A stretch of 64,000 bases of DNA from Chiloscyllium plagiosum. Taxonomy: Eukaryota. Numbering within the stretch: position 1 is the first letter of the stretch; each line of letters begins with the position of its first letter. The notes beneath the pieces are model-generated. The model did no database searches, was not told the DNA's origin, and worked only from the letters and a program-made list of their open reading frames with translations. Positions 2,522-58,800 of this stretch are shown piece by piece. Location: the NCBI RefSeq assembly GCF_004010195.1, contig NC_057749.1, positions 16,644,564 through 16,708,563 on the forward strand. The letters run 5' to 3'. The translations under genes and the position numbers were made by a program.

Positions 2522-4039
2522 CAAACCCACCCACTCCCACAACTGGACTGCACCACTGTCCACCCTGCCTCCTGTAAAAACACTATCCACTACTCCCAAT
2601 TCCTCCACCTCTGCTGCATCTGCTCCCAGGAGGACCAATTCCACCATAGAACAACCCAGATGGCCTTCTTCTTCAAGGTCTGCATTCTCCCATCCTACGT
2701 GGTAGACGATGCCTTCCAGCGCATCGCCTCCACTTTCTGCACCTACGCCCTTGAATGCTACCCTCCAAGTGCAAGATTGACAGAACCCCCTGGTCCGCAC
2801 CTTGCACCCCATCAACCTCTGGATACAATGCATTATCCTCTGCCACTTCCGCCACTAACAAACAGACCCCACCCATCAGGGATATATTTCCCTCTCCACC
2901 CCGGTGTTCTGCAGAGACCATTCCCTCCATGACTCCCTCATTAGGTCCATGCCCTCCACCAGTCCACCCCCCCACCCCAGCACCTACCCCTGGCATAGCA
3001 AAAAGTGCAAAACTTGTGCCCACACCTACCCAGTCACTTCCCAAAGGATCCTTCCACATCCAACAGAGATTTACCTGTACTTCTACGTCATCTACGGTGT
3101 TCACTGCTCTTGATGTGGTCTCCTCTACATTGGGGAGAGAGGACGCCAACATGCGGAATGTTTCAGAGAGCATCTTTGGGACGCATCCTCCACCACCAAA
3201 CTCTAGCCACCTGACATCTGGAAGAAGAATGCCTCATCTTCTGCCTTGGGACCCTCCAACCACATGGGATCAATGTGGATTTCACCAGTTTCGTCATTTC
3301 CCATTCCCCCCTCACCTTATCCCAGATCCAACCTTCCAACTCCGTGCTGCCCTCTTGAACTGTCCTACCTGTCCACCTTCCTTCCCATCTATCTGCTCCA
3401 CCCTCCTTTTCAACCTATCACCATCACCCCGACCTTCATCTACCTATCACATTCCCAGCAACTTTCCCCCCCCCCAACCCCCTCCCCTTTATCTCTCAGC
3501 CCCTCACTTCCTGATGAAGAGCTCAAGCTCGAAACATTGACTCTCCCGCTCCTCGATGCTGCCTGACTGGTTGTGCTTTTCCAGCACCACACTTTGATAT
3601 TAATTTAAGAGTTTTCTCAACTAGACATGAGAGGATCCAGTAGATGCTTTGTATTTGGACATTCATAAGGCATTCCACATAAGGTACCTCACAAGAGGTT
3701 AAAATAGAGTTCTTGGTGCTGGAAGTAATATATTGGCATGGAGTTGAGAATTGGCTCATCATCAAGCAGTGAATGGGAATAAGGTTTTTTTTCCCCAACT
3801 TAGGACCAGCAGGGTTTCACAGAGATCAGTATAGCACTACAACTGTTTGTAATATATTACTTGGATGAAGGAAGTGAATGTACTGTAACCATATGGCTGA
3901 CTACACTAAATTTGGTCAAAAGGTAGTTTTGTGAGGGATACAGTGTGCATGGAGTATAAGGTGACCAAAGTCTGTGAGAAGATTTGTAGCTCGGGTGCTC
4001 GTTGTTGTGGTTCTGTTCGCCGAGCTGGGAATTCATGTT

Positions 4040-37800: not shown

Positions 37801-40800
37801 CCAATATGACCTAGTCCCATTTTCTAGCATTTTGCCCATATCCTTCTAAACCCCTCCTATTCATATACCCCATCCAGATGTCTTTTAAATATTGCAATTG
37901 TACCCACCTCCACCACTTCCTCAGACAGCTCATTCCATAAATGCACCACACTCTGCTTGAAATAAGTCCTTTTTAAATCTTGCTCCTCTCACCTTAACCC
38001 CACGCCCTCTAGTTTTGGACTCGCCCACTCTTGGAAAAAGACCTTGGTTATTCATCCTATTGATGCCACTCATGATTTGGCAAATATCTAACAGAGATGG
38101 AAATGTGTTGCTGGAAAAGCGCAGCAGGTCAGGCAGCATCCAGGGAACAGGAGAATCGACGTTTCGGGCATTAGCCCTTCTTCAGGAATATCTAACAGCC
38201 TCCAATACTTCAGGGAGAAAAGCCCCAATCTATTCAATCTCTCCCTATAACTCAAACCCTCCAGTCAGAGCAAAATCCTTGTAAATCTTTTCTGCACCCT
38301 CTATTCTTTAACAACATCCTTCCTACAGAAGGGCGGCCAGAACTATACACAGTATTCTGAAAGCGGCCAAATCAATGTCTTGTACAGCTGCAACATGACA
38401 TCCCAACTTCTATATGCAAATATCCTGATAATAAAGGATATTAAATCATGGAAAGAGTTTTCTACCTCTGGTTTGATTTCTAAGAATTTTAGGGTGGGGG
38501 GCAGTATCAAGAGGGTTCAGAGAAAATGTCAGGAATCGGATTCATGGCATGATGGGCATCCCAACATTTTTCGGAAGTCGGATACAAACAAGAATTGGCC
38601 TGAACTGATGCTTTCTTGGTCATAAAGCTTGTCAACACACTTAGGTTAGGCTGAAGTGCAGAATGATTAATTGAATGATATCAATAGAAGTACACCCCAG
38701 CAGAATTCAAGCATCTCTTGGGGAGATGGAAGAGAATTAAGGGAGAGGGTAATGGAATGAGACTAAAATCTGACCAACACAGCTCATATTTTAACAATCA
38801 AATCCTATGATGCAATTTTGACAAACAAATAGCTACAACTTTGTTGCTTTTTTTTTTCAAAAGTAGTTCAACTACCAGTTGGCACACAAATGTTACACGA
38901 GTAGCTACATGGTTGATCACATGATAATGCATACTTTGCTTCCAGTGCAAGGGCAATGATTCCAGCAGCAAGAGGAGCAGATGCAGAAGTTCCAGTATGT
39001 GATTCTGTACATTTCTGTCTGAGATCAGTGGTAACCTAAAGAGAAATAAAAGGAACAGATGTAATGAGGTTGCAGCCATTTCAACAAGGCAGTAAAACTG
39101 GCACCAAGAGCTGGAACATCAGAAAACACAGTCAATACAAAACAGGTTTATCCACATTAGCTCCAATAAAGGGTCACAATCTGAACCATTCAACAGTCTC
39201 TACTTGAGACCAGATGTTTTCTGATCTGATCACAAATGAGTGACGCAGCATTAACACCTGGTTTATAGTGTTTTAAATGTGCCAACATTCAAGTCTATCC
39301 AGATAATTCTAACAAAGGTAGTTTGTACTGAAGTCTGTCAGAAATTAGCTGGTATTAACGAACAATGCACAACAGGCCTACGCAGGATGGGGCATAGAGA
39401 GATCAAAGTTTTAAAAGCTGTGGAATTTGAATAGGAAAGCACCACTGTGATTTTGTCTCATTTAGAAGAAACTAGCGTTATAATGTGTACATGAGAATTA
39501 TGGAATAGATTACTAGTAAAGGTGGTGATAGAGAATCATGGCAGAGTTTTTTTAAAAAATCTGTTGGCCTGTTAAAAAGGTTCATTCGTGTCAGCTGCAG
39601 AATAATTAAAAAAAAACAAAATTAGAATGGATAGATCACAAACCTGAAAGACCTTTGCATAAAACATGACTGTGTGCAAACTTGTCCATAATTTACCCTT
39701 TCAAATGTAGCTGTTTCCATATTTGTATTTGCTTCTTTTTCTCATGTCCAACTGAGACAAACTAATGTAGGAGGAATTACCCAAACCTTCAGGCAAAAAC
39801 TCAAACCAAAACAGCTGGGCTTAAACATCAGTGCAAGCTTGTCTTCAGCTGTGCTTTCTAATCTTGCTTTCCCAGATTGTTATACATGCCCTTTAATATT
39901 TCTAAGAGAGAAGTAACCTCTTAAAAATCGTGACTGAATCAGATTAATAGTCACTAGGATAAAGTAAAACCTGAATGAGAATAATAATTCAGGCACTACT
40001 GTTGCTAGATATTTACCCAATTAAAGAGCTTTCAGTGCCACATTTTGAAATTGGGTGCAGATTATTCCAATATTGTTCTGTCAATAACAAAGCAGGCATA
40101 CAAAGATTAGGACTCTGGACAACAAAACTTTTATCATAACAGCTACTTACGATCTGTTTTTCAAATTGACCTCCACTACTATATGTAGTGGCAAGTGTTG
40201 AAGAGCATGCCTCGCTGTACCAAGGTACATTCCCATTCTGAGTTGTACTGCTGATTGAAAGGGTGTAGATACTATTTGTATATCCATCACAGTTACAGCT
40301 GTCATGTTCCCGGCCACCATTCCCAGAAGCCCACACAAATATTGAGCCAAGACGACCACGTCCCTGCAAATATGTTTTTCAAAACAAGTTAGCATGCTCA
40401 CCTTGTGAAGCCACTGAACAAACCATTATTGCATAATTGTATTACAAAATGGTCTCTGCTCACAATTATAAATCTGCATTTTACCCAAGCCCCTTGCATA
40501 ATAAGAGACAGAGACACAGGTATTTTGGCCGAATAAGCTTATGAAGAAATGAATATTCAATTCTGCACTTATCTTGAACATACAGGCATTATTTACTTTA
40601 CCTGCGAAATGCCTTTAAAAAACGCTGCCTGTGCTAATTTAGCAGGACCATCCACTGTCTTTCCATCATCCTCTGGACCCCAACTAGCACTGTAGATGTC
40701 AATATGTTGAGGGTACATACTAAGGGACTGAGCTTCCACAGCATCAGTCACCTCTCCATCTAGCATCCGCACACCTATAGAAACCAAGAAAATGTACAAC

Positions 40801-43800
40801 TCTTAACAGTGGCACTGGCCAGTTTTGGAATGAACTATGAGAAGTCTCCAGGTTCAAAACATAGCTGAAACTACCAGAAGGAAGGGACAAAGTCAGAACA
40901 CAACATTTTTAAGGAAAAAGTATTGAAAAGAAATTGCCAATATTCAAAAATAAATTGCAAGAAACATTGGCTAGTAAATTAAAAACAGGGACAAAAGAAC
41001 ACATTCCACAGAAACACAATGTAAGAGGAGAAGGCATTCAGCCCCTCAAGCCTGCTCCACCTCTCAGTATGATCATGGCTGATCACCCTGTCCCCGCTTT
41101 CTCCCCCTTTCCTTTGGCCACTTTCGCCTCAAGAACTACACCAACATAGTTACGTCAAAGTCTTCAATGTTTTGGACTTAATTTCCTATGTCTGAGAATC
41201 CCCACGGTTCATTATTGTCTGGGTGAAGAAATTGCTCCTCATATCTGTCTGAAAAAGTCTACCCTTTTTTCTTACACTATGACCCTGGTTCTGGACAAAA
41301 AAACATGAATACTACTAGTAGGGCGTGGGTGCAAAGGGAGAGGAAAAAAGAATTTAAAAAATTGACCACATTTTCTGCTCCCAGGTGATACCCACTTCCT
41401 GTTGGCAAGACCATGTAAAAGATTAAATTTAAACTGTATTGGCCTTCGTGGATACTCACTGACAAGTCTTACACCTAAACAGTCTTTTGGGCAATATGCC
41501 AGAGACAGACTGGCGCCTAATGTAGCGATCTTAGCAAAGAGGGAGGGAGGACAGGGAAAACCCAAATTGAAAGTAATGTGCTTTAAAAATATTCATTTGT
41601 GCATACTGGTGTTTTCTATTAAGCTAATTGCAGTTGGCTAATATAAAACAGATTCATGTCAGTAAAAGATCACAGCATTTTATTCCACGAATGCCTCAAA
41701 TTTGCCACAATTGCCATTGGCAGCTAGTATGAAGGGTTTATATCATCTGACAGGTTTTTGAGCAACTGAAAGATAATCTTTCAGTAGCTGACAAGCTGTT
41801 GTATGAGCACCACTTCAGCTTTGAAGATTCACCAATTATTAATTGTCTAAAATTTTTAATGGGATAATTTGAAGAAGCAAATGATGCTAAAATTTGTGAG
41901 AAAGTAAGCTGCAATAAAGAAATAAGCAATTTACAAATGGATATGAATAGGTTTGGTGACAGGGCCAAAATTTGGCAGATGGAGTTGGATATGGATGAGT
42001 GAGAGGTAATCCATTTTCATCAAAAGAATAGAAAGGCAACCTATTATTTAAATGGAGAGAAACTTCAGTGTGCTTCCGTGCTGAGGGATCTGGGTGTCCT
42101 TGTACATAAATTGCAGAAAACTAGCATGCAGGTACAGCATGTAATAAAGGAAGACCAGTGGCATTTTGATATTTATTGCGAAAAGAAGAACGTTTAAAAA
42201 TAGGGAAAAGCTGCTGCAATTGCACAAGGCATTATTGAGACTGCCTTCAGTATCACAGATAGTTTTGGCCCTCTTTACTTGAGGGGGGACGTGGTTACAT
42301 TGAAGGCGATTTAGACTGATTCCATAAATGAGAAATTTGTCGTATAAAGTGAGATGAGCAGTTTAGGCCTGTACTCTAAGAGTTTAGAAGAATGAGGTGA
42401 GATTTAATTGAGGCATACAAGATGCTAAGCAGATTGACAGTAGATATGGAGAGGACATTTCCTTATATGAGACAATACAGAACAAAAAGTTTTCCCATAA
42501 AGGGTAAAACAGAGATAAGGAGAAATTTATTCTCTCTGAGGGTTCTGAATTGTGGAATTCAATACTCCAGAGTGTGATGAATGCCAGGACAGTGAGGAAA
42601 TCTGAGGAGATAGATAGATTTTTGATTAGCAACGGATTGAAGGTTACGGGAGTGGGCAGGAAAGTGGAGTTGAGGCAGAGATGAGATCAGCCATAACTGC
42701 ACTGAATGGTGGAGTAGGCTTGAGGATTGAATTGCCAACTTCTGCTCAGAGTTCTTGTGTTCTTCATCCACCCAATATTTACTCCCCATTATTCATGGAA
42801 TTGAGCACCCACCCCTGCTCACATAAGACTTTTGAAAGCCATTGCTTTGGCTCAACATCTGCAGTCAGCATAGCTTGGGTGTGAAATTTATGCAGTCAGC
42901 ATAGCTAGGGCTCAAAACATTCTTGTTCTAGAAAAATGGTTTGTTGCTATGGGATTTACAGATAATCACCACGAACCTTTTGAGATGAATCGCAAGCAAA
43001 GCAGTCTATAAATAAACATTCACATAAAACTTGAGGAATAAGATGCCAGACAAACACCTTCACTAGAGGGAGTGGTGGTGGAATGTGGGACGAGAGAGAG
43101 AGAATAATTACAAACACCAATTAAACCAATGCAATTCTTGCAAAAAGGAAGGAAGGTTAATGCTCTACCCACCAGCTTCTCTTTTCGACAAGGTAATTAC
43201 TTCAACAAACAAAAGGTCACTGGCTTCTGGCTGGTATGGAGTTGGCAATTTTTGTAAAATACAATTCACCAAATGTTCTTGGATCTGACCACTGGGATGG
43301 TAAGCAGGATCAGCTCGAACAACGATGCCCCAAATAGTGGGCCAATATTTATGATAGGCACAGTTGGGTTTGCACCGTTATCAGAACCATTAGAACAGCA
43401 CGAGTTGGTGTATTCAGCAGCGACAGATGGGGTGGAATTAAGGAAGTAACAGTTGATACATACCCCCGATTCTGGCATTATATGCCACACCCACACCACA
43501 AATCCCATTGTTGGCTACAGCTGCCACCTCACCAGCACACCGTGTTCCATGTCTGTCGAGAAACAGCAACCATCAGAATTCCACAAACCATTTTGTTTAA
43601 ATAGTCGTACAAGCACACTTTTCTCATAGGGACACAGTTTCACATCATCTTCTATCCCCTTCATTCTCAACTCCATAAAACCTACTTAGGTGCTACTGAC
43701 TGAAACGTTAAACAGTTCAATTGTTTCCCCCACAGTCAGAATCAATAAAACATTATTACATTGACCTGACAGTGATGCCTAATCAATCAGTTTTCTCCAT

Positions 43801-46800
43801 AACTAGGTATGAATTCCTCTGTTACTTAGGAAATTGTACCAAGAAATCAGTACACAATCGAATCTTCAACTACCAGTGACAAAAACTTGCAACCAACCAT
43901 TGGTAATTCAACATTATTAAAATAATCCTTCCAAGCAAACTTTGGTTGGGTGTTTTTCATCATGGCAGAAATGGAAGTACAAGAATTTTAGTTACAATAG
44001 TAATTCATTAATGCCAAATCGTAACATTCTTCTGAATATGTACCAACAAGATTCAAGACAAATCATGAGCCTGCTTCCAGAAGTTTGTTTTTCTGCATCA
44101 GAAATGCCCTCTTGTCCTCAGTATTTTTAAGCTGTTATTAAGCACCAGATGATTAGGTCTTCAGCACAGACTCAAAGATAAATTACTTTTTTTCTCCATA
44201 CAGTCACCATTAGGGTTCTTAAGTCCAGGGATACGGATTGTGAGGAGTAAGGTACGGTGAACAGGAAGACACATTATCCATTAGTTGATGAGTCAATAAC
44301 CAGTGGCATAGATTTAAGATAAGAAAGCCAACAGGAGATTTGAGGATAATTTTTTTCACCCAGAGGATGGTGGTAATCTGGATCTCATGCCTGAAAGGAT
44401 GATTAAATCAGAAACATTCATAACATTTAAGCAGTATTTAGATATTCACGTGTTTACCACAGGAAAACAGGATTTGTGTGGATAGATCTTTGTTGTCTTA
44501 GACTGGGTGAGCTGAACGGCTATCTTCTGTACTGTAAACATCTGAGCTATGAGGTAGATGAACATTTTTTTATATAGCATAAAAACAGCCATTTAGTCCA
44601 AATTTACATAATTTGTCAAAAATTACAAGTTAGTCCTACTTCCCTGCTTTCCTCATCATTGCAATTTTATCTCCCTTGAATATTTAATCTTACTTTTAAG
44701 TTATCAAATCTGCATCCACCTGTCAATAGATGATGGTGTGGAGAACCCAGCTCATGCAGGGAGACAAGTCCTACTCCAAGGCTTGGTGGCCAAGTACGTA
44801 CATTTATATCATGGCGAAATAGGTTGAGGAAGATCTTGCAAATGGTTCCAACACACAACAATGGCAAGCAATATGATGAGAGATTCCAGGCTCCAAATAA
44901 GCAAATAAAAACCTCTACCATTGCAGAGGTACCATTGTATGTAAAGCTCAGTTGGCTAGAAAGCAAGTCTTGAAAATGTATTGCTGGAAAAGCGCAGGTC
45001 AGGCAGCATCCAGGGAACAGGAGAATCGACGTTTCGGGCATAAGCCCTTCTTCAGGAATTTTCTTTCCTGAAGAAGGACTTATGCCCGAAACGTCGATTC
45101 TCCTGTTCCCGGGATGCTGTATGACCTGCTGCGCTTTTCCAGCAACACATTTTCAGCTCTGATCTCCAGCATCTGCAGACCTCACTTTTTCCTCCTAGAA
45201 AGCAAGTCTTATAAATCAGATTGACACCAACAACACAGGGATTGATCCCAGAGGAAGATTTGGGAGCTGCTTCCTTGCCATACGTATGGTAGACGTATCA
45301 GCAGGTAGATCGGTATTTCAGGCAGATGACTCATGCTGGTAACCCAGCCAGACGGTAGGATGTTTTTGCTAATGTCACCTCTGGTTCTTTTGCCAATCAA
45401 CTTAAACTTGTATGCTTTGGTTATTGACTGTTCAGCCACTAGAAAAAGCTTCCCTTTATTGGTCCAACTAAACTATTCATGATTTTCTATCATATTTCCA
45501 AAATTGCTTTGAAATTTTGTCTGGAGTTTAACAGAGTACGTCAATAAAGTCCTCACAGGAAAGCATTTGGAAATCAATTACACATTGAGACATGGTCACC
45601 GGAGGTTAAAATCTTCAAAAACCCTTTAATTCACCATGGTCTTTCTCTGAAGTGACCTACCGATTATCATTCAGCTGTGTGTAACGGGGCTGAGGATCAG
45701 GATCATTACCATTTACGTCGTAACTGGCACCTGGATCCTGGAATAGGAAGAAAAACACTGATTAAGTTCCCTTTTTCCTATGCATCACTAAGAATAAAAA
45801 ACAAACACTTCAATCTTGGTTGATTCCTGCTACGGCACTGACAAGATTCCTGAGAACCCAATGACGTTAGCTGAGTTGAGAACAGTGAAAGGTATTCAAG
45901 TCAGGCATTGTATTTAAACCAATTTATTTTTTGTATCTTCATCCACCAGCTCCATAAGTCAAGAACACATCATTCAAGCTTTTCATGTTAACAGGGAGGG
46001 GAAAATCAAAAGGTAGAGAAGAGGGAGAGTATTTTTATTGAACATCAGCTAATTTGTTTCAACTTGAAACTGAACATTAATTCTAAAATTGACATACGTG
46101 ATTCCAGATAGACTGGGTCTTATCCAGTTTGCTGAGTTGCATGGACGTCAGCAAAGAATGCCACCCTGGGTGTTAGTCTGTTAAATGTCAAGAGGATTCG
46201 GATGTTAGACTTTTGGACAGCTAGGTTTGGGCTTGTGTGTTGATGAGTCACCTAATAGTTTAATGTGAACCAGTTAAAATCAGCTTTCATCACGTGGGAC
46301 TCAAACTTTTTCCACCTGGTCATTGTGGCAGAAAGGACACAATTCCAGTTTATCCTGAAGACCATTTCACTTGGGAATTAAGATTTTTTTCTTTAATCAT
46401 AGGTACAAGGTTGAGCAATTGTTAGATGGGTCCCCAGCAGCAACCCAAGAATGAAGCAAACAGATCTACTTACATAATTAGCTGATAGGTCTGGATGGTT
46501 CTTCTCAATTCCGTCATCCAGAATAGAAACTACAACACCCTTTCCTGTATAACCCTGCTTCCAGGCTTCTTTTACATTCAAGTCACGATGATCCGTGTTA
46601 TGCTAGACAACAAACAACCACAGCAGTGAGCTGCCCTGATTTACTTTAAACAAATTGAAATACTATTAACTCTGACTGCACGTCAACATGGTAAAGTATC
46701 AAGTCTTTTTTGCTTTCACCTTGCCACTTTGCTACTTTTGTTCCCATTTATTCCTAAGAGTGCACAGATACCTTTAGACAGGTCATTAGGACATATCACA

Positions 46801-49800
46801 GATTAAGGTGCTGTATAGGTGCAATGGATTTATTTAGAAGATAAACACTTGTACAGTGTGCCGCTTTATTATCTAACTGAAGTGGTACAGCAGGTTAATA
46901 CCTCAACACATTAAATATGTGCAAACATGCAATTAAGTGCACAACATTTACTATCTTGACAGATCAGTGAATATATTGTTAACCACAGTGCATAAATCTG
47001 GCTCACATGTGCAGAGACATTTTATAGGCACAATGACTTGCAAACATCACTTGTTATTAATTATTCACCTCATGCAATTCATGAACTTCAATAAATTATA
47101 TTCTTTAATTGAAGAACGTTAAAAAGTTAGAGTCCTAGAGCTGTGCAGCATGGAAACAGACGCTTCAGCCCAACATTTCCATGCCAACTAGATATCCCAA
47201 ATTAATCTAGTCTCATTTGCCAGTATTTGGCCCAAATCCCTCTAAATCCCTCCAATTCATAAACTCATTCAGATGCCTGTTAAATATTGTTATTATACCA
47301 GTCTCCACCATTTCCTCTGGCAGTTCATTCCATACATTCACCACCCTCTGCATGAAAATGTTTCCCTTTAGGTCCCTTTTAAATCTTTCCCTATTCCCTC
47401 TAGTTTTGGATGACCTCACCCCAGGGAAAAGACCTTGTCTATTTACCGCATCCATGCTCCTCATGATTTTTTAAGTCATGAAAATAAATTTCTGTCAAAG
47501 CAACTCAGGAGTTAAAAAAGAAAAAGACCCTTCTTTGGTGCCCAGGATGCTTGTGTTGGGTTTGCCTAAAAAAGTACCGTTGTACAAAGATGTACTATGC
47601 ACAGTACAGGCTGACAAGTTTAAAAGCACAGTCCTAACCAAGTGTTTTCACACTAGGTCTGTATGAACAGGAATACTATTCACCGGTTCAATATTTGTAG
47701 AAATCTTTTTATAATACACATTAAATATGGGAAGGGGACAAACTAGCCCATATATGCACCCAAAATTTACCTATGAACAGTAATAACTTAAGAAGAGAAA
47801 GGGGCAGATGCTGGTTTTATAGGATTCCAAAAACTCTCAAAATTAATCAATTAGTGGGCGGCATGGTGGCACAATGGTTAGCACTGCTGCCTCCCAGCGT
47901 CAGAGACCCAGGTTCAATTCCCACCTCAGGCAACTGTGTGTGGAGTTTGCAGTGTCTCCCAGTGTCTGCGTGGGTTTCCTCCGGGTGTTCCGGTTTCCTC
48001 CCACAGTTCAAAAATGTGCAGGTTAGGTGAATTGGCCATGCTAAATTGCCCGTAGTGCTAGGTGCATTAGTCAGAGGGAAATGGGTCTGGGTGGGTTGTT
48101 CTTCGAAGGGTCGGTTGTTCTTCGAAGGATCGGTGTGGACTTGTTGGGCCGAACGGACTGTTTCCACACTGTAAGTAATCTAATCTAATGTAATTCAGGA
48201 TAAAACACGATGCTTTAAAATGCTGTGCTACTTCTGTGTTCTGCTCTTGAAACAAACAGGAGAAGCCAATGCAGCATCTGGAGGGTCTGCCACATTCAAA
48301 TAAATCAAGGCTGCTCTATATCAACCTGCATGCTTTAGAGTTAAAACCCTCAACATACTTATCTAAAAAAAAATTAATCTCAGCTTTAAAATTTCCAAGT
48401 GACAATATGTACCTATGTTCTGGAGTTCTGGGAGGGAAAAACCATTTCAGATATGCATAAAATATTGTGCAGGGGGGTGAGCCTGACATCATTCCTGAAT
48501 GACCCAGTCCTAATTTTAGCAATAAAACAGTTAATGGAAAGTTTAATAGATAAAGGATATTTTTCCCAAACAAAATATGTCCCACAAAATCTCTTCACAG
48601 GGCTTATTCTCTTGATTTGAGGCTTATATTAAATTCACATACCAAGATTTTCCTTCACTTAAATGAAATGAAAATAAAATTTTCTCAAACATTTCAAAAC
48701 ATCCTTCTCTAACATCTTGGTCCACAGTTCCTCATGCCTTGTAGACCTTTTTTTCCTTTACAAGTCTCATGCCATTCCCTTACTGCACCACATCATTCCC
48801 AATATAGGAAATCTTCATTATAGAGACTGAAAAACCTCTGGGGAGATTGATGGAGCAGAATCTGTACCTTTCTGTACTTGCAAAACACAAAGAATTGCTT
48901 ACCAGGTACCACTGGATTGGGAATTTGGGGTCATTTGGTTCAGTGTAAGTGTCTCTCTTTTTCCTTTTCTTAATTACTTGCTGTTCCAGCCATGTGACCT
49001 GTTTGCAAGAATAAAGTCTTTGAGGAAAAGAAACTTTTTACCTAGAAGGGCATTACAAAGCAATTTTGTTTAACCAGATTAATTGATACAATTAGTGTAA
49101 AAGTTCAAGTAGAAGGAAATAGTGGCAGACTTTACAATCTGTTCGAGGTACTTGACCCAGATTTGACTAATTTCCAAATGAATTTTTGTTTAAGTAAATG
49201 GCATAACAAAGGATCAAGAGTTGCTTACACAATGGAAATGTAGAATTTCTAATGCCCTCCCTCCAAAAATTACTAAAGGCTACGTTATGTTTAGCTAGAA
49301 ACACAACTTTAGCTAAGTCAATTATATCACAATCACAACTACCAGCTGTGCATGAAGGCTATGACTGAGCAGTTTACCTGAGGTCAAATCACAAAAGGGA
49401 CTTCATATTACTGCAGTATAAATCCTGCTGATTAATACCAGTGACCTTTCCTCATTCTATATTGCACGATCAATGGATTGAGGAAGGTAACAAATTTTCT
49501 GGTTGCGTTTTGTTCAGGGCTTTGCGCTTGACAAGTCACCATAGCCCTACCAGAGCATAGAGCTGTTCTCTCAGACAGTGAAGACTGGTGATGGAGTTGA
49601 ACCCGAGGGGTGAGGTTGAGAAAGAGGTACCATCATGTTAACCTCAGCCAGTGCAGGACTTGAACATGTGCTATCAATGTCACTCTGCATCACAAATCAG
49701 CTGTCTAGTCAACTGATCTAACCTTATCCCCCCACCCTCCCCACCTCCGGCTCTTGACAGGTAGCAGGAAGATTGAATGTGTACAAGCTTTAACATCCTT

Positions 49801-52800
49801 GCCAAAAGAACAATTGTGTCAAAAGTTATTGCTCGCTTACTGGAAGTGCTTGTCCTTACTAGAAAAATGTTGATTAGCAGCATACAATCATTTATAAAAG
49901 GTAATAGAAATTGTAGTTTAGAGTACTGAACTTGAGCATTGCTGGTCACAAGCTTGTCATTTCTGTGTAAGAGTCTAACCTGCAATGTGTCAACTATCCT
50001 CTCTTACAGACAAGATGTTTGTTTTAGTTCAGAACTTTTTTTTCTCTCCTCTATCTGCACCAAGTCACGCATAGTATTTCCAATCTTGGTAAACCATTAC
50101 ACTTTTTAATTCAGGCATCACCAAGGAGAGAAATACAAAACTATTTTGGCTCCAAATGTTCCTGCAAATGGAATATCAGTGGATGGTTATGTCTACAAGT
50201 GAGTCCTTTACCAACATGAATAGATAACAAAGGGCAGATCAGCTGAGAACATTGCAATGTAATATACGACTTTAGTCAATGAAAACCATTCACAGTATTT
50301 CAAAACCAAAATAAAAAAATTTGCAAAGATGATCTGAAGTCTCCTTCAGAAGTACTTCACAATTTGGCTGGAATGTAAACTTGCAAAGAAATCAGATTAT
50401 TTCATTAGTTTGCCATCATACGGACCAAAAAAATTCAAAAGGAGTTGAGGATTGACTGACTGACTGCTTCAGCTTGCATTATGAAAATAACACAGTGTCC
50501 GCTCACAAAGTGTCTACAATCCTGTTCACCACTTGGGATGTCTCTTTCACACAAAGTTTTGAGGATTGGCAATATTCTTAGATATAAAAGATCTTCAGGT
50601 GTTTGATCAATAAGGGATTGACTGCCCCACAATACCTGCAACTGATTACTGTGGAGGTCATGTAGGAGGAAAGGACAGGCTCCAACAACATTTGGGAGTA
50701 GATGAGGCATTGATGGATTCTAAGCTCTGTGGATTCTCATCCTTTCATGTTCACATCAATGGAGCTGTGAAACGTAACTGGAGATTTTCTGAGACATGAG
50801 CACCAACACTACTTATTCCTGAAGTTCTTTGAGAATTTCACTCCGACAGAGTAAATGTTGTTCTGTGTCATGCAATAGAAGTCACAGGTGCGCGCGCACG
50901 CTCAGTGACAGATATTTGGCTTGGTGGTCCTTCGTCTGGGCAGGGAAGGAGGCCAGCAGAACAGTAATAGCTACTGCAGAAGAGAACTTGAGGACAAAAC
51001 GATGTCTTTCCAATCTATGAGTATAGGACATACACCTCCCTTTAAATCCCTCATTAAAAGGTTTACAAAATTATGAGGGGCATGGATAGGATATATAGAC
51101 AAAGTCTTTTCCCTGGGTGGGGGAGTCCAGAACTTGAGGGCATAGGGTGAGAGGGGAAAGGGACCTAATGGGCAATGTTTTCACGCAGAGGGCGGTACGT
51201 ATATGGAAAGAGCTGCCAGAGGAAGTGGCGGAGGCTGGTACAATTGCAACATTTAAAAGGCTTCTGGATGGGTATATGAATAGGAAGGGTTTGGAGGGAT
51301 ATGGGTCAGGGGCTGGCAGATGGGACTAGATTGGGTTGGGATATCTGGTCAGCATGGATGGGTTGGAACAAATGGTCTGTTTCCATGCTGTACATCTCTA
51401 TGACTCTATAATTGGTGGCATGTCCTCCCTCCATCCTGCAACTTGATGCCACATGTCAGCCAGCACACCACACACCTACAAAAAGGGGTAATGATGAACT
51501 TCATGGCCTGTATCTACCTTCAAGAACAGGAGACCCTGAGATACAGGAAATGCATCAATGTCCTAAATTACCTTGATAAGAAGTTGCACATCTCATACTC
51601 ATGGGCAGCACTGCTTTTGGAGCAACCAAAACAGAGGGGTCTGAACAAGATTTGCTGACGAAATGCAGAAGTGAAAGAGAGGGATCAGGAGTACAAAACA
51701 ACCAGTCTATCCAACCCTTGAAGCACCAACTGCCCCAAATGTTAGAGTCTAGTCATCACACACTGTAGTTATCAGTCAACTCAAACGATTGAACGAGTAC
51801 ACAATAATATTATCAAGGATAATAACGGATTGCCTTAGGTGAAGTTGACTCCACCTATTTTTCTATTCAAGTGGCAAATCTGCACATCTGGTTTAATACC
51901 TGCAAGCAGTCTCAAATTATGGTAAGACAGCAGTTAGTACCATAATTGTGCATTAAATTCACAGTTTTACACAGGCACCTCATGAGCACATTTAGCATGT
52001 TTTTATTCTTGGGTTAAAATTCCTTGGAGATTGAATTGCCCCAGCTTCACTCAGGTTTTATCCAATAGACCAGGCACTTAAAATCTAACATACAAGCATC
52101 AGTCCTCCAAGATCATCTTGGTGTCTCCTTGAACTGGAAGATTCTTGTGGTAACTTGCGGTGGAAAAAAAAAGAGCACCATTGGAAAAAAGTTGCATTGA
52201 CTTTCTTTTCTATGTTAATATTTTTATAACTAATATTACTGCAGATAGTTTTAAAAAGGGTTATTTGTTCATCATTTATATATAATAATTTGAATGTGAG
52301 CATAACAGGAATAGTTAGTAAGTTTGCTGATGACACCAAAATTGGAGATGTAGCAAACAGCAAAGGAGGTTACTTCAGAATACAACGGGATCTTGATCAG
52401 ATGGGTCAATGGGCTGAGGAGTGGTAAATGGAGTTTAATTTAGATAAATGAGAGGTGCTGCATTTTAGGAAAGCAAATCTTAGCAGCACTTATACACTTA
52501 ATGGTCAGGTCCTAAGGAGTGTTGGTGAACAAAGAGACCTTGGAGTGCAAGTTCATAGCTCCATGAAAGTAGAGTCGCAGATTGGTAGGATAGTGAAGAC
52601 GGCGTTTGGTATGCTTTCCAGTATTGGTTCAAGTATCGAGTAAGGGAGTTGGGAGGTCATGTTGCGGTTGTACAGGACATTGATTAGGCCACTTTTGGAG
52701 TATTGCGTGCAATTCTGGTCTCCTTCCTAGCGGAAGGATGTTGTGAAACTTGAAAGGGTTCAGAAAAGATTTACAAGTGTGTCGCCAGGATTGGAGGACT

Positions 52801-55800
52801 TGAGCTATAGGGAGAGGCTGAATAGACTGGGGCTGTTTTCCCTGGAGTGTAAGAGGCTGAGGGGTCACCTTATGGAGATTTATAAAATCACGAGGGGCAT
52901 GGATAGGATAAATAGACAATATCTTTTCACTGGGGTGGAGTCGTCCAGAAATAGAGGGCATAGGTTTAGGGTGAGAGGGGAAGGATATAAGAGAGACCCA
53001 AGGGGCAACTTTTTCATGCAGAGGGTGATGAGTGTAAGGAATGAGCTGCCAGAGGAAGTGGTGGAGGCTAGTACAATTGCAACATTTAAAAGGCATCTGG
53101 ATAGGTATAAGAAGAGGAAGGGTTTGAAGAGATATGGGCCTAGTGCTGGCAAATGAGACTAGATTGGATTGGGACATCTAGTCGGCATGGGCGAGTTGCA
53201 CCGAAAGGTCTGTTTCCGTGCTGTACATCTCTGTGGCTCTGACTGGCTGAGATTATTGGAAAGGAGGTGTATTATTGAAACTTCTAAGAATACAAAGGAT
53301 TGGCAACATCCACATTGGAGAAATTGGAGTGAAACAATTCCTCAGCCTGAACTCTCATGGAAGTTATGTGCGTGTGTAAGCAGCTGTTTGCATTACCCCA
53401 ATGATCATAATTAAGCAACCTTTACACCACACATACTACTAAAATAGACAGCATTTCATCAGCTGGAAAAGCAGTTGCAATTACACCTTTCCTCAATACA
53501 GAACTGAAAGAAAGAGGGAGAGGTCAGCACCTGTGTCAAACCACAGCTGCAGGTTGCACCAATTGAGTAAGAAAATTAGCTCATCTGCCCCTGATTTGCT
53601 TAATTAAAAGGAATTAAGATCATTTGCTTAATTAAAAAAATACACAATGCTGCAAAGACTGAAGGTTATAGAATATTCAGTAAACACAAACTACTTTTAT
53701 ATTTAACAAACTGTGGAGCAAAAACAATGCAACTGGCATGACTTGCCTCTTTGCGTGGGAATATTTCACAAATCCCAGGTTGAGTGTTTTCAAATGTTTT
53801 CTATGTATTGTTTGTCTTTGCCAGCTGCATCCTGTTGGTTTACTCCAAAGGAAATAAACCCATTGCCTTTGTTATTTAATCAAAGTTCAACCCAAGTCCG
53901 TGCTGTGCTTCCTCTATTAATTTATTAAACGCCCTGCTTAATTGAATTATAATACTCGGAAATTTTTTTGAAAATGCAAAACAAAGCTAAGAAGTCACAG
54001 AAGCTTCTCAAAGTACCATCGCTTTTTAGGATACCACTTCAAAATATTCCCTTCCAGTACCTCTTGCAAGTGGAGATTTTTAAGTGTTGACAGACTATCC
54101 CTTTAAGGGACAAGTCACATTCAGTGAGATGGTGTGTAGTGGGGTGCCTCACTATTTCCTACTCACCTCTAATTGAGTAAATGTACCAATGACGTTATCA
54201 GCTGACAATGGTTAACCCACCAGAGACCAAGAACTGTACCTGGCAACTTCCAAATCCTCTAGGCTGTTTTAGACAAGTTTTTTTTAATATAAATTATTTT
54301 ACACTGAACGTGGATTCACTAGCTATGTCAGCATTTCATTTACAACTGGAAATGGTGCTTTAGCATCACCTTTCTGAATCACCAGTCCATTTGGTAGAGG
54401 AATGCCCATATTTTGGTTAGAAAGTGAGTTCTAGAATTTTGACCCAGGAATACTAAAGGAACACTAATATGTTTCCAAGTCAGGACGGTGCTTTCCTTGA
54501 AGAGGAACTTGCAAGTAGTTGCATAGCCAATATCTGCTGGCTTTATCCTTCTTGGTGCAGCAGATTGCAGGTTTGGAAGGTGGTATCAAAAGAATCTTGG
54601 TGAGTTGCTACTGTGCATCTTGTAAATGGTAGACACTATTGCCATTGTGCATCAGTGGTAGAGGGAGAAAATGTTGATGGTGGAGGACAAAGTGCCAATC
54701 AAGTGCATCAGTAGAAAATGAGGACGGCAGGTGCTTCAGAATCAGAGTCGAAAGAGTGGCACTGGAAAAGCAAAGCATGTCAGGCAGCATTCAAAGAGCA
54801 GCACTGCTGACGTTTCAGGCATAAGCCCATCATCAAGAATGTGGAGGGGTAAGGAGGATGAGAAATAAATATGGAGATGGGGTGGGCGTGTGTGGAAGGC
54901 AATAGGTGGATGCAGGAGGGAGGTAATTGTGATAGGTTAGTGGGGAGGGTGCAGCGGATAGGTGGGAGGAAGATGGACAGGTAGGACAGGTGAAGAGAGT
55001 GGTTGGGGGGGGGGGGGCAAGATTTGGAAACTGGTGAGATTGATGCTGCTGTCGTGTTGTTGAAGGGTCCCAAGGCGGAAGATGAATAATTTTTCCTCCA
55101 GTTGGTGAGTGGCTTTGATTTGTTGTTGGAGGCAGCTCAGGACGTGCATGCCCTTGGGTAGTGGGATGGGGGAGTTGAAGTGGTCAGCCACAGGGTGGTG
55201 GGGTTGTGTGGTGCATGTCCCCCAGAGATGTTCCCTGAAACACTCCATGAGTTGTCGTCCTGTCTCACCAATGTAGAGGAGGCCACATATCAAGAGCAAC
55301 AGATGCAGTAGATGAGGTGGGTTGGTGTGCAGGAAAATCTCTGCCGAAGTGAAAAGATCCTTTGGGGCTCTGGACGGAAGTGAGGGGGAAAACCAAGTGG
55401 ATTGCTTTGTGCTGGATGGTGGAGAGTTTCTTGAGTGTTGTTGGAGCTGCACCCATACAAACAAATGGACAGTATTCCATCACACTTTTGACTTATGCCT
55501 TGTAGATGAAGATTTTGAGAAGTCAGGAGGAGAACTCAGACGACTGACTGTGTGGAGTTTGCACGTTCTCCCCGTGTCTGCGTGGGTTTCCTCCGGGGGC
55601 TCCGGTTTCCTCCCACAGTCCAAAGATGTGCAAGTCAGGTGAATTGGCCATGCTAAATTGCCCGTAGTGTTAGGTAAAGGGGTAAATGTAGGGGTATGGG
55701 TGGGTTACGCTTCGGCGGGTCGGTGTGGACTTGTTGGGCCGAAGGGCCTGTTTCCACACTAAGTAATCTAATCTAATCTAATTCCCAGCTTCTGACCTGT

Positions 55801-58800
55801 TATTGTAAACACATCTATATGGCTGTGCCAGTTCAGTTTCTGATTAGAATGCTGATACTTGGGATTAATTGACTTTTTAATGGCACTACCATTAAAAGGC
55901 TAATGGTTAGATTCTCTTGATGGAGGTGATGATTGCCTGGCACCTGTCAGCAAAAATCTGCCTAAGCCTGAACCTTGTCCAGGTTTTACTGCATTTTAAC
56001 ACAGACCGCTTTAGTGTTTGTGAAGGTACAACTGATGAAGGGCATTATGCAACCACCTACAAACATCCCCAACTTCTGATTTTATGATGTAAGGAAGGTA
56101 ATTGCTGAATTAGCTGAAGACAGTTAAGCTGAGAACGTTACCTTTGAGGAATTCATGTAGCAACATGCTGGGATTGAGATTATTGGCCTCAGAAATGACA
56201 CATTTTCCTTTGAGATGGATAGGATTTCAACCAGTAGGCAGTTTCTCCCAGCAATTCCAGATTTATTAAGACTCCTCAATGCCAAACTCATTCAAGTGCC
56301 GCTTTTAGGCAAGGGCAGTCACTCTCACCTTAGTCCTTTGGTCCATGTTTTAGTAAGGCTGGATTAAGATCAGGTGCTTGGTGGGCCTGGCAGAACCCAA
56401 CTTAGTGTCAATGCAATTATTCCCTTGCCACTGTTTGATTCGCTCAATGGCATGGTCGAAAGTCCCTTCCCATTGCTTGACTGACCATTAAACAGTACAC
56501 TGATGGGGAGATAATTGGTTTGATTGGATTTGTCCTGTTTACATACATAGGACATAGTTGGGCAATTTTCCACATAGCCAGGGAGATGCTGGTGTTAATG
56601 CTGTACTGAAACAACTTGGCTAGGGGCATGCCTGAAGAAGGGCTCATGCCCGAAATGTCGATTCTCCTGCTCCTTGGATGCTGCCTGACCTGCTGCGCTT
56701 TTCCAGAAACACATTTTTCAGCTCTGATCTCCAGCATCTGCAGTCCTCACTTTCTCCTAGGGGCATGACCAATTCTGAGATGCAGGTCTTCAGTCTTATT
56801 GCCCAAATAAGGCAGGGCTCAAAATCTTATTCACATACTAAATTGTTGCGAACCTTCAAAAGAAGATTCTCCATAAATCCTCAATACAGCACATCTAAGA
56901 AAAAGGTACTATACATGGCTAAACTTGCAAAGTGGTTATTTCTCTCAAAAGGGATAAAATGTTTACCTACATTCAATCTGAACATCCCAGAATAATCTTT
57001 CGAAGACGGTTATGCGGTTGAACACTATATGTTCAACACTCCCAAGATACAACTGGTTAAATGGCTGCTTTCAATGCGAGGAGAAAGTGAGGACTGCAGA
57101 TGCTGGAGATCAGAGCTGAAAATGTGTTGCTGGAAAAGTGCAGCAGGTCAGGCAGCATCCAAGGAACAGGAGAGTCGACGTTTCGGGCATAAGCCCTTCT
57201 TCAGGAATGAGGAAAGTGTGTCCAGCAGGCTAAGATAAAAGGTAGGGAGGAGGGACTTGGGGGAGGGGCGTTGGAAATGCGATAGGTGGAAGGAGGTCAA
57301 GGTGAGGGTGATAGGCCGGAGTGGGCTGGGAGTGGAGAGGCCAGGAAGAAGACTGCAGGTTAGGAAGGTGGTGCTGAGTCCGAGGGATTTGACTGAGACA
57401 AGATGGGGGGAGAGGAAATGACGAAACTGGAGAAATCTGAGTTCATCCCTTGTGGTTGGAGGGTTCCTAGGCGGAAGATGAGGCGCTCTTCCTCCAGCCG
57501 TNNNNNNNNNNNNNNNNNNNNNNNNNNNNNNNNNNNNNNNNNNNNNNNNNNNNNNNNNNNNNNNNNNNNNNNNNNNNNNNNNNNNNNNNNNNNNNNNNNN
57601 NNNNNNNNNNNNNNNNNNNNNNNNNNNNNNNNNNNNNNNNNNNNNNNNNNNNNNNNNNNNNNNNNNNNNNNNNNNNNNNNNNNNNNNNNNNNNNNNNNNN
57701 NNNNNNNNNNNNNNNNNNNNNNNNCTCCGGCCTATCACCCTCACCTTGATCTCCTTCCACCTATCGCATTTCCAACGGCCCTCCCCCAAGTCCCTCCTCC
57801 CTACCTTTTATCTTAGCCTGCTGGACACACTTTCTTCATTCCTGAAGAAGGGCTTATGCCCGAAACGTCGATTCTCCTGTTCCTTGGATGCTGCCTGACC
57901 TGCTGCGCTTTTCCAGCAACACATTTTCAGCTCTGCTTTGAATGCGAGCCAAGCAGAGAGTACTAGAATTTACAACTCTGCTCAAGCAGTTCTATACCCA
58001 AGATTTGAACTGCCAGCCTGCATTTCAAATTAAATTGTACATGAAATGGACTGATGTCAGAAAAAGCGTGTTAAGCCTGCAGATATTGCATACAAGTCCA
58101 CAAGCTTTGATCAGAAACTTAAATGCACAAGCAGAATTCAGATTCAGTGTTCACAATTAGTCCAGTACTGTTAAAAAAAACAGAAGTTGGAAGAAATGCA
58201 CTTTGAAGACTACATTATCACCTTGAAAGCTCAGTGTATAACAACTGGTGCTACTAAAATAGAAGTTCCAAGATTCTCTTCTGCTTCTCAATGGAATCTG
58301 AGGAATTAGCAAGGAGTGGAATCAGCACAGGAGTGGAATCTGAGCTTCTTGTTTGTCTGCACTCCTGCACATACAATCTTGGTCCCACCCAAAAGAAACA
58401 AACAAGCTCAGTCGGTTCAGCTCATATTAGGTAAAAACAATGACTGCAGATGCTGGAAACCAGATTCTGGATCAGTGGTGCTGGAAGAACACAGCAGTTC
58501 AGGCATCTTCCGAGGAGCAGTAAAATCGACGTTTTGGGCAAAAGCCCTTCATCAGGAGGGCTTTTGCCCGAAACGTCGATTTTACTGCTCCTCGAATGCT
58601 GCCTGAACTGCTGTGTTCTTCCAGCACCACTAATCCAGCTCATATATTCCCAAGCTGAATTTTGTTTTTCTCTATAACTGACTTCAGGTTCTGAATGACT
58701 GTTAGCAGGTCTCAGACACCAAAACCAGTCTGGCAATTAGAGCTAGTAAATCCAGTTCAAGGCACTAAAAAATTAGGCTTCTGAAACAAACAATCGGACC

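Follow-up and report, generated by a model that had tools for sequence, protein, structure and literature searches.

Short copies of a Penelope-like element leader in Chiloscyllium plagiosum share a 5' boundary at the edge of a minimal hammerhead motif

The short repeat units found in the 64,000-nt stretch of Chiloscyllium plagiosum DNA analysed here (the window) arose by short retrocopying of a Penelope-like element (PLE), of which they represent the leader ('R'), and their 5' ends cluster, far beyond what chance would give, at the 5' edge of a minimal hammerhead motif. Numbering the unit from the first C of CCTGAAGA (u1), the cluster centres on u-2, for which the likeliest cause is an RNA of the element whose 5' end lies there; this transcription start is inferred, and we give it an even chance of being correct. 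With slightly less confidence than that, we suggest that the transcript starts with the hammerhead itself, +1 being the first base of helix I, and that the commonest retrotransposition product is a dead-end, 'strong-stop-like' copy of the leader, because reverse transcriptase (RT) starts internally ~95-130 nt downstream. The finding refines known Penelope behaviour and involves no new kind of element.

The repeat units and their parent element

The 126-nt units correspond to the 'R' piece at the 3' end of a PLE that encodes an RT with a C-terminal GIY-YIG nuclease, and they carry a minimal hammerhead motif. Two window ORFs have Pfam matches under the cut-off, ORF 8685-9107 to GIY-YIG (E 3e-4) and ORF 6872-7318 to RVT_1 (E 1.8e-3). 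Shark homologues of the window ORFs (51-79% identity) carry RVT_1 followed by GIY-YIG, the latter scoring 23.2 bits in homologue P0003 with a cut-off of 22.6. No intact full-length PLE ORF was seen in the sequence examined, nor was a complete pseudo-LTR-ORF-pseudo-LTR copy recovered among the loci examined. In the copy at 8685-9354 the ORF is followed by ~155 nt of 3' UTR (pseudo-LTR) and then by a short-form R at 9262-9354. Head-to-tail (tandem) junctions of the type extension/ATTCCTG occur in genome loci L023 and L053, and R-extension-pseudo-LTR-R units of ~300-490 nt lacking the ORF in L013 and L049. The subfamily type of copy 70-209 is also present in L039, L041 and L049, where it forms an internal-deletion (non-autonomous) unit. 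The PLE parent had gone unrecognised in the preliminary description of the window; PLE inverted partners and an alternative 3' 'tail' have already been described.

A scan for minimal type I hammerheads found 65 in the 357 kb and none once the sequence had been shuffled, and the letters of the core (CUGANGA ... GAAA ... UH) are invariant in 24 diverse copies. Helix II, which is closed by a loop, is 92% paired and has the variants GAGC/GCUC and GAGUC/GACUC; in the copy at 3218-3595 it reads GAGC/GCTC, a compensatory change relative to GGGC/GCCC. Helix I is no longer than 4 bp; in the main family it includes a U.U mismatch and 69% of cells are paired, and in two other lineages it consists of four perfect pairs with altered letters. 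For the hammerhead structure as a whole, the observed value was reached by 10 of 500 shuffles. Rfam hammerhead models gave no gathering-score match over the window and none at E <=10 over 56900-58700, a miss that may be caused by the near-absence of helix III. Related PLE hammerhead motifs cleave themselves poorly alone, cleavage being seen as dimers or with protein (PMC4209133, PMC11167929). The cut site follows u29 and so lies 28 nt 3' of the C in CUGA, where it had been placed earlier (about 28 nt beyond the breakpoints).

The 3' ends of the units had been described simply as variable. They do vary, but fall at two discrete sites ~30 nt apart, ~u87-96 and ~u125-130, with rarer ones further downstream, and the two sites correspond to the known PLE 'tail'. 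The RNA continues past u126: with an 85-nt query made up of u103-126 plus 59 nt, all 40 matches scored (from 1590 candidates) cover positions 1-83 or more. The ORF start seems to lie near u167 and is reached through this downstream extension. Among 25 extension-bearing copies, 10 start in u-4..u+6; only that in L066 keeps the parental upstream sequence intact, and that in L074 keeps it with a deletion.

Units of ~100-130 nt, together with their hairpin forms, account for much of the genome's repeat content. To covariance models they look like miRNA precursors, so that annotation as PLE leader copies is called for.

Clustering of 5' ends and inversion points

The copies in the window are collected in Table 1. 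The coordinates previously reported for five of them (56631-56756, 38095-38186, 44972-45194, 58428-58635 and 30551-31000) all hold. The start of copy 38095-38186 may be read as u-2 or u1, because ATT can be assigned either to the element or to the duplication. The arms of palindrome 58428-58635 join at cctgat/agggc, one extending to u1 and the other beginning near u9, and copies 57081-57501 and 57725-57935 together form a large head-to-head pair whose centre is the N run 57502-57724.

Table 1. PLE-derived copies in the window and their target-site duplications
Feature	Position	Strand	Extent and structure	Target-site duplication
Simple long-form R copy	56631-56756	+	u1-u126; begins at CCTGAAGA right after the duplication	CTAGGGGCATG, 56620-56630 and 56757-56767
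Minimal hammerhead motif in copy 56631-56756	56632-56660	+		
Simple short-form R copy	38095-38186	-	u1 to ~u93; terminates at the element position where 56631 starts	AATATCTAACAG, 38083-38094 and 38187-38198
Head-to-head palindrome	44972-45194		Short-form arm 44972-45056 (-), filler aattttcttt 45057-45066, long-form arm 45067-45194 (+)	16 nt, 44956-44971 and 45195-45210
Palindrome, older subfamily (CCTGATGA)	58428-58635		~79% identity to reference copy; junction atcagg/agggc	CAGCTCATAT, 58418-58427 and 58636-58645
Nested inverted complex	30551-30998		Arms 30551-30643 (-), 30669-30725 (+, cut at u57), 30731-30856 (-), 30874-30965 (+, from u35); 33-nt extension past u126, 30966-30998	Single, 30535-30550 and 30999-31015
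Long copy, reference	57081-57501	-	u-295..u125	
Long short-form copy, partner of 57081-57501	57725-57935	+	u-115 or beyond to u95	
Long copy	8685-9354	+	ORF 8685-9107, GIY-YIG part of PLE protein	
Long copy, diverged subfamily	3218-3595	+	70% identity	
Long copy, another diverged subfamily	54713-55101	-	66% identity	
Copy, subfamily with homology to autonomous element ending near u-62	70-209	+		

The genuine 421-nt copy at 57081-57501, which serves as coordinate reference, was compared by blastn with the window and 50 genome loci, 357 kb in total. The 5' ends of 57 of 100 copies fall within u-9..u+8, a bin of 18 of the 421 nt (4% of the reference), and the clustering of breakpoints at the 5' edge of the core, first noticed on a few copies, is thus borne out; the 10 copies that could not be placed adjoin N runs or locus edges. 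The proportion was 18/29 among copies chosen by similarity to u1-126, 13/22 among the other copies in the same loci, 17/31 in twenty 10-kb regions at round-number coordinates and 9/18 among window copies. Long copies passing through u-2 account for 30-40% of the total.

Starts are spread over u-9 to u+8 rather than confined to one base, the modal start being the ATT that precedes CCTGAAGA (u-2). Beside clean duplications, copies start at ATTCCTG (L022 and an old-subfamily copy in L002), at CCTG (window 56631), at TTCCTG or TCCTG with 1-3 extra bases (L024, L002, L014) and at CATT (L008, L020). Extra G residues, a possible cap signature, were found at 2-3 junctions only. The same boundary is seen in bulk DNA: contig depth falls ~fourfold at u-2 (one DNA run's contigs on window 57040-57501), and summed word depth is 13-20 million over the unit versus 3.2-4.8 million over the 100 nt upstream. 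Among those listed, loose ends on the 5' side lie at 57208 (u-2; 93 reads, run X21) and 57207 (u-1; 20 contigs, run X15), and both continue randomly; none of those listed on this side comes from the DNA run X1. The block conserved across subfamilies (66-76% identity) starts at CATTCCTG, and upstream of it the sole feature kept is a TTATCT motif ~30 nt away. No statement on the clustering of PLE 5' ends was found in the literature searched.

Head-to-head palindromes flanked by target-site duplications also invert at the u-2 point. Palindromes inside single duplications are present in the window and in L003, L009, L010, L011, L028, L031, L042, L043, L044 and L048; 15 of 18 combine one short-form and one long-form arm, and among the first 100 exact genome matches to u1-31 listed, 12 sit in 6 head-to-head pairs. 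Many junctions do contain filler, which had been called pyrimidine-rich; it consists largely of short inverted re-copies of u5-11 (CTTCCTTCTT being the reverse complement of AAGAAGGAAG), as in the window at 30644-30668, in L041 and in L009. Where the selected arm of a palindrome has a rare A at u77, the partner arm has C (7/7 cases), with the arms agreeing at u15 and u40.

A proposed transcript start and its rivals

In the mechanism that we favour, the RNA would begin with the A of CTCATTCCTGAAGA (about u-2), which precedes the CUGA box by 3 nt and is exactly the base with which the 4-bp helix I opens. PLE RT would start internally (~u87-96 or u125-130, occasionally downstream in the extension) and not at the RNA 3' end. 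Starting in the 5'-proximal R, it would run off the RNA end after ~95 or 130 nt, leaving a short copy with a target-site duplication; from the 3' R, where the RNA is full-length or tandem, it would proceed into the 3' UTR and ORF, and truncation at scattered points would give the 'long' copies. Since both target strands are nicked and extended by the PLE protein, one site can give rise to two cDNAs, and where these met head-to-head at their RNA 5' ends a palindrome would result, the joining being blunt, via AGG/CCT microhomology or after small snap-back re-copying, which would leave short fillers. The u77 discordance between arms is not predicted by a simple run-off model.

Several observations bear on the start itself. 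CTCATTCC at u-2, and TCAGTY in two other lineages, fit what we take to be the initiator consensus, and the A of the start motif is in each case the outermost base of helix I (AUUC/GAUU, AGUC/GACU, AGUU/AACU). In poly(A) single-cell RNA reads there is a depth step at u0 (714 vs 161), which mirrors the DNA step; 92% of these reads continue into unlike sequence and no pile-up of molecule starts was reported among them. The proposed start falls together with both the hammerhead edge and the conservation edge, and the arguments drawn from the three cannot be counted as independent. Of the two options raised in the preliminary description, an RNA starting just upstream of the core is the favoured reading, although its 5' end would be that of the ordinary element transcript, and a separate short RNA need not exist.

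Were the template instead to reach further upstream, RT might stop, be released or change templates on reaching the hammerhead's 5' edge, owing to the fold or to a bound protein. The breakpoint is indeed the outermost base of helix I, the 30-40% of copies that traverse it are compatible with a leaky stop, template switching is plainly frequent here (fillers, tandem junctions, multi-part inversions) and the u77 discordance hints at switching between templates. However, an RT moving 3'->5' has the whole motif unwound by u-2, and a fold would be expected to block it at the 3' side of the structure; upstream continuation, moreover, is seen in 1-2/25 extension-bearing copies versus 30-40% of R-only copies. 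With an Anolis PLE in vitro, products became shorter in step with the RNA when its 5' end was cut back from -126 to +200, and mutating the hammerhead had no effect (PMC11167929). A stop at the hammerhead edge is thus unlikely in our view, and its variant in which the folded ribozyme itself triggers RT release, the other option raised earlier, is disfavoured because the motif has already been copied by then and because the Anolis products extend through and beyond the hammerhead, lengthening with the RNA 5' end (PMC11167929).

Somewhat less likely again is a SINE-like lineage of short units that propagates itself, being transcribed from u-2 by an internal promoter and mobilised by the PLE protein, with the shared start simply inherited. 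The genome contains 36,156 exact matches to u1-31, a very high copy number, the Drosophila Penelope promoter lies downstream of its start site (PMC2377424), and the same rare-variant palindrome with the same junction occurs on two different chromosomes (L009 2968-3125 and L044 1709-1918). A second hammerhead family, too, consists of short copies only, with upstream sequence shared beyond ~9 nt in 0/8. Against this, u15/u40/u77 haplotypes are common to long and short copies, the start is common to several subfamilies of differing age, and the 126-nt copies lack the downstream extension, whereas the Anolis protein requires RNA past the RT start sites (PMC11167929). Descent from a single truncated master copy is likewise unsupported given the haplotypes and the start shared by diverged subfamilies, and two other hammerhead-bearing families in the genome also show inverted junctions at the same place. 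As to self-cleavage of the RNA by the hammerhead, one copy (L067) starts at u30, at the cut site, and two inverted arms have inner ends at u25 and u27, but starts in u25-31 number only 2/100 copies plus 1/25 extension-bearing copies, the cluster lies ~30 nt upstream of the cut and in Anolis no reads start or end at the cleavage site (PMC11167929); we consider this origin of the 5' ends highly improbable.

The role of the hammerhead in PLEs and the origin of dispersed minimal hammerheads in animals have been called unresolved in a review (PMC7761336). A discrete 5' boundary at the ribozyme edge, common to several families of this genome, links the published internal RT start sites, both-strand priming and a pseudo-LTR promoter into one testable picture of the main PLE retrotransposition products. 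If true, the proposal of a transcript that starts with the hammerhead and mostly yields dead-end leader copies would explain both the thousands of solitary minimal hammerheads in animal genomes and the meeting of PLE inverted repeats at one point, and initiator and ribozyme constraints would overlap on the same few bases.

Comparison with known systems

LINE-1 twin priming likewise yields inverted insertions within one duplication, but its inversion point is variable and its arms come from different parts of one RNA. Retroviral minus-strand strong-stop DNA is comparable in being a short leader cDNA made by run-off, but is an intermediate and not an integrated product.

The closest parallel among PLEs of the canonical EN+ type is with Anolis carolinensis Poseidon (PAc; Frangieh et al. 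2024, PMC11167929), which shares the RT with C-terminal GIY-YIG, the target-site duplications, a hammerhead at the junction of pseudo-LTR and 5' region and the use of both target strands. There RT starts at two adjacent internal sites ~30 nt apart, ~100-130 nt downstream of the hammerhead, defining a 30-40 nt 'tail' as here, and it reaches the RNA 5' end irrespective of hammerhead activity. The shark element differs in that its ORF seems to begin ~165 nt past the hammerhead, not inside stem II, and in its majority class of ~95-130-nt copies with a discrete 5' end, of which the main text of PMC11167929 makes no mention.

For Drosophila virilis Penelope (Schostak et al. 2008, PMC2377424; Cervera and de la Pena 2014, PMC4209133), the descriptions give a start site and internal Inr/DPE promoter within the pseudo-LTR, a 3' pseudo-LTR able to drive transcription alone and a very short hammerhead helix I; for the shark element, too, an initiator-type start is proposed and helix I is short. 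In Drosophila, 46 nt and a 75-nt intron separate that start from the hammerhead downstream of it, whereas the start inferred here falls on the first base of helix I, with no sign of an intron. General PLE anatomy, as set out by Craig et al. 2021 (PMC8557442), includes frequent 5' truncation, an inverted 5'-truncated copy at the 5' end and a 30-40-bp tail, often at one end only, all as here; the anatomy as set out there has no preferred point of truncation or inversion, whereas more than half of the ends here lie within ~18 nt. Like the dispersed minimal hammerheads of other genomes (Cervera 2014; de la Pena 2020, PMC7761336; Li et al. 2026 preprint), the units are solitary, of type I, number in the thousands and lie in non-coding DNA. 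Finally, the non-LTR retrozymes of animals (PMC7761336) are also non-autonomous units derived from PLE pseudo-LTRs, to which the R-extension-pseudo-LTR-R units here may correspond, but retrozymes are tandem and the leader copies are solitary or inverted.

Repeat unit, parent element and hammerhead motif

The 126-nt unit at 56631-56756, which gives 19 blastn matches within the 64-kb window, is the final part of Penelope-like element (PLE) insertions; we call this 3'-terminal piece R. The copies at 9262-9354 (+), 57081-57205 (-) and 57841-57935 (+) have 300 nt or more of upstream sequence in common, and upstream of the first of these lie an ORF with a GIY-YIG match (8685-9107) and, farther upstream, an ORF with an RVT_1 match. 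In longer shark homologues RVT_1 precedes a C-terminal GIY-YIG domain, which identifies the parent as a PLE of the canonical endonuclease-bearing type. Element positions are given as u-numbers, u1 being the first C of CCTGAAGA, on a single real copy of 421 nt (the reverse complement of window 57081-57501, u-295 to u125); handles beginning with L denote genome loci fetched for comparison. The exact 31-letter pattern of u1-31 occurs 36,156 times in the 3.56-Gb genome, its reversed control 0 times.

In its letters, R conforms to a minimal type I hammerhead: CUGAAGA followed by a bulged A, a helix II of GGGC-UUAU-GCCC, GAAA and a cut triplet GUC ending at u29. Helix III is 1 bp (self-complementary ACGU). 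Helix I has just 4 bp: AUUC/GAUU, which includes a U.U mismatch, or, in two further lineages, AGUC/GACU and AGUU/AACU. Rfam returned no hammerhead at gathering score or at E up to 10; a scan for the architecture gave 65 sites over the 357 kb sampled, against 0 in shuffled sequence. The core letters are unvarying in 24 diverse copies, and helix II there is 92% paired, with compensatory variants present. According to PMC4209133, helix III of PLE hammerheads is short or missing, a base bulges out at helix II, and helix I can be as little as 2 bp, as in Drosophila virilis. Judged on sequence alone, the letters of our unit fit that published form, and the unit matches a minimal type I hammerhead motif of PLE type, a putative ribozyme.

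Clustering of 5' ends

The preliminary description held that the breakpoints of short copies and palindromes cluster at the 5' edge of the hammerhead core, and this proved correct and rather precise. We sampled the window, 30 similarity-found loci and twenty 10-kb regions at round-number coordinates (357 kb, with another 4 kb besides), placing 5' ends by blastn of the 421-nt reference against the 357 kb. In total, 57 of 100 copies start at u-9 to +8, a bin that makes up 4% of the reference; 10 copies that adjoin N runs or locus edges were unplaceable. A minor group of ends at u-61 to -77 is a true conservation boundary between autonomous and ORF-less units. For the diverged copies, an artefact of this type is ruled out in most cases, as palindrome junctions and duplications fix the ends without upstream homology.

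Independent support comes from the contigs of a DNA run (X1), whose summed word depth on window:57040-57501 steps from 13-20 million in the unit through 7 million in the bin spanning u0 to 3.2-4.8 million in the next 100 nt. In two other runs, the 5'-side loose ends among the matches listed fall at 57208 (u-2, 93 reads) and 57207 (u-1, 20 contigs), with random sequence beyond; the matches listed include none on the 5' side for X1. Exact starts were read where target-site duplications are clean (see table). These, together with head-to-tail junctions in L023 and L053 in which the extension (element sequence past u126) is followed directly by ATTCCTG, indicate that the ends include 1-3 bases of parental upstream sequence. 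The modal start is an A that doubles as the outermost base of helix I.

Poly(A) single-cell RNA reads (X21) have a depth step of 714 vs 161 that mirrors the DNA copy-number step, 92% of them continue into unlike sequence, and no pile-up of starts is reported among them; they are consistent with read-through and carry little weight either way. Run X22 contributed no reads. In a further run, X15, assumed to be RNA, the drop at u0 is about 19-fold vs 4.6-fold in DNA, contig depth being a poor measure.

The same behaviour is seen in two more hammerhead-bearing families of the fetched DNA. The second, which is short and begins with its hammerhead (CTGATGA-A-GGAGC...GCTCC-GAAA, helix II GGAGC/GCUCC), has upstream sequence in common beyond about 9 nt in 0 of 8 copies, an inverted arm at the hammerhead edge in 4 of 8, and two alternative 3' ends about 37 nt apart. 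In the third, helix II is 6-7 bp (GTTACC/GGTAAC) and a covarying helix I 3-4 bp (UCCA/UGGA, UCA/UGA); one of six copies (L050) is a palindrome inverting at the hammerhead.

Positions of 5' starts, extensions, palindrome junctions and copies of the other families
Feature	Location	Detail
5' end in u-9..+8	Copies chosen by similarity to u1-126	18/29; unbiased for upstream extension
5' end in u-9..+8	Other copies within similarity-found loci	13/22
5' end in u-9..+8	Copies in random regions	17/31
5' end in u-9..+8	Copies in window	9/18
Exact start	L022; old-subfamily copy in L002	ATTCCTG (u-2)
Exact start	Window 56631	CCTG
Exact start	L024, L002, L014	TTCCTG or TCCTG after 1-3 extra bases
Exact start	L008, L020	CATT
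Exact start	L035	u-9
Exact start	Second L035 copy	u7
Extension past u126	L052:376-501; L053; L013:1061-1144; L049:1124-1226; window 30966-30998	
Palindrome centre	L003, L028	CAGG-ATT-CCTG
Palindrome centre	L010	CAGGAAT-C-ATTCCTG
Palindrome junction	L009, L044, window 58428	One arm complete to u1, other from u5-u10 via AGG/CCT microhomology
Inverted arm stop	L005, L015	~u62-66
Inverted arm stop	L027	u27
Inverted arm stop	L042	u25
Second family	L041:1863, L014:294, L031:1522, L031 (-), L032:3236, L037:4594, L047:3606, L050 (-)	
Third family	L013 (-) near 1980, L038:521, L025:2958, L050:4672	

Origin of the 5' boundary

Comparison of the copies suggests that the sharp boundary is most likely the 5' end of the PLE transcript. 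Conservation across subfamilies (66-76% identity) starts at CATTCCTG, the upstream pseudo-LTR being variable except for a TTATCT about 30 nt away, and this favours an RNA 5' end, as does CTCATTCC (TCAGTY in two other lineages), which resembles an initiator. The boundaries of start site, helix I and conservation fall at one place, so these three lines are not independent. The TTATCT block, at about u-34 to -27 in long copies, those that reach upstream of R (e.g. window 9226-9236), is the sole further block that diverged subfamilies have retained; it might serve as a promoter element, and it is the reverse complement of a GATA site. In Drosophila Penelope, the pseudo-LTR houses both the transcription start and an internal promoter of initiator type, and the 3' pseudo-LTR is enough for transcription (PMC2377424).

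Alongside an RNA start upstream of the core, which is now favoured, the preliminary description had proposed that the ribozyme triggers release of the reverse transcriptase (RT). A block imposed by the RNA fold at the hammerhead edge would be in the wrong place, since the whole hammerhead has already been copied by the time RT arrives at u-2. In Anolis, hammerhead mutants were without effect, which also speaks against such a block, and product length tracked the RNA 5' end through and past the hammerhead, as favours a transcript end (PMC11167929). Copies that bear the extension would derive from the R at the RNA's 5' end, with nothing upstream, in which case they should rarely continue past the boundary. 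Only two of 25 such copies do so, one with intact parental upstream sequence (L066) and one with upstream sequence and an internal deletion (L074), whereas the figure for R-only copies is 30-40%; of the remaining 23, 10 start at u-4 to u+6 and 13 start inside R or are unplaceable. Hammerhead cleavage was rejected as the source of the ends: the cut lies about 30 nt downstream of the cluster, and starts near u30 are confined to 2 of the 100 sampled copies and 1 of the 25 that bear the extension. That last copy, L067 (G000:C1:104753257-104753357), starts at u30, the expected post-cleavage 5' end. A splice acceptor was likewise rejected: AG is absent before u-2, and the start directly adjoins random flanking sequence that carries the duplications. 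In Drosophila Penelope an intron ends at helix I.

Haplotypes are common to short and long copies, and the start is common to old and young subfamilies. Both observations favour a transcript end and oppose the earlier alternative that all short copies descend from a single truncated master. SINE-like spread may apply to part of the copies: palindromes on different chromosomes (L009:2968-3125 and L044:1709-1918) share a rare helix II loop variant (GGGCCTGTGCCC) and an identical junction, with differing flanks, reflecting either a re-mobilised palindrome or a junction that recurred via AGG/CCT microhomology.

Palindromes, 3' ends and known Penelope-like elements

Palindromes lie inside single 10-17-nt duplications at window 44972-45194 and 58428-58635 and in L003, L009, L010, L011, L025, L028 and L044. 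One short-form and one long-form arm (ending at about u87-96 and u125-130, respectively) are present in 15 of 18, and in some cases an internally truncated inverted arm is fused to an intact arm starting at u-2 or u-1. Among the first 100 exact genome matches, 12 form six head-to-head pairs with gaps of 3, 3, 11, 15, 25 and 151 nt. The Anolis PLE protein cuts and extends both strands (Frangieh et al., PMC11167929), which would give two opposed cDNAs and hence a palindrome. In a small set selected through a rare A at u77 (CCAGAAACAC), all seven palindromes (L003, L007, L009, L010, L011, L027 and L028, near locus position 1500) have that A in the search-picked arm and the common C in its partner, whilst the arms agree at polymorphic u15 (4/5) and u40 (6/6), which suggests that the arms are chimeric or that two related templates were used.

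PLE coding sequence (GIY-YIG region), sense or inverted, abuts R at u-3 or u33-39 in L008:1630-1645, L072 and L073, junctions that look like template switches between far-apart parts of the element. The N run at 57502-57724 is the centre of head-to-head long copies (57081-57501 and 57725-57935) and N runs also border several further long copies from the loci fetched; long inverted PLE structures may be under-assembled or withheld. With the mir-761 and mir-722 precursor models, the palindrome at window 58508-58597 reaches 31-36 bits, far under gathering; its miRNA-precursor matches in Rfam are all sub-threshold (35 bits vs gathering scores of 81-82). Hairpin PLE copies could pass for miRNA precursors.

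The outer (3') ends, earlier described as variable, are not free: they fall at the short-form or long-form position, with a minority of copies running on. An 85-nt query (u103-126 and 59 further bases) gave 1590 candidates, and all 40 matches scored span positions 1-83 or more; a 61-nt query drawn from the 3' half of the unit gave none, as words this frequent are passed over in the search. An ATG near u167 in the extension opens a reading frame (MPSLKKLSSSLYKDF...). L013 and L049 have the final 77-209 nt of the 3' UTR attached straight to the extension, which makes units of roughly 300-490 nt that lack an ORF and look like non-LTR retrozymes. These features of the extension indicate that the RNA runs beyond the usual copy ends.

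The element class is a known one: palindromes, two 3' ends and a hammerhead all belong to the documented anatomy of PLEs. What is added is the sharp 5' boundary, a useful refinement of which we found no statement in the PLE literature searched and read. The inverted copy and one-ended tail of our palindromes exactly match the PLE insertions described by Craig et al. 2021, in which the 5' end bears an inverted 5'-truncated copy and the tail is often confined to one end. In the Anolis PLE, RT initiates inside the RNA, at two neighbouring sites downstream of the hammerhead, and the segment that separates them makes up the 30-40-nt 'tail' of genomic copies (Frangieh et al., PMC11167929); there, as here, two 3' sites are used and the RNA runs past them.
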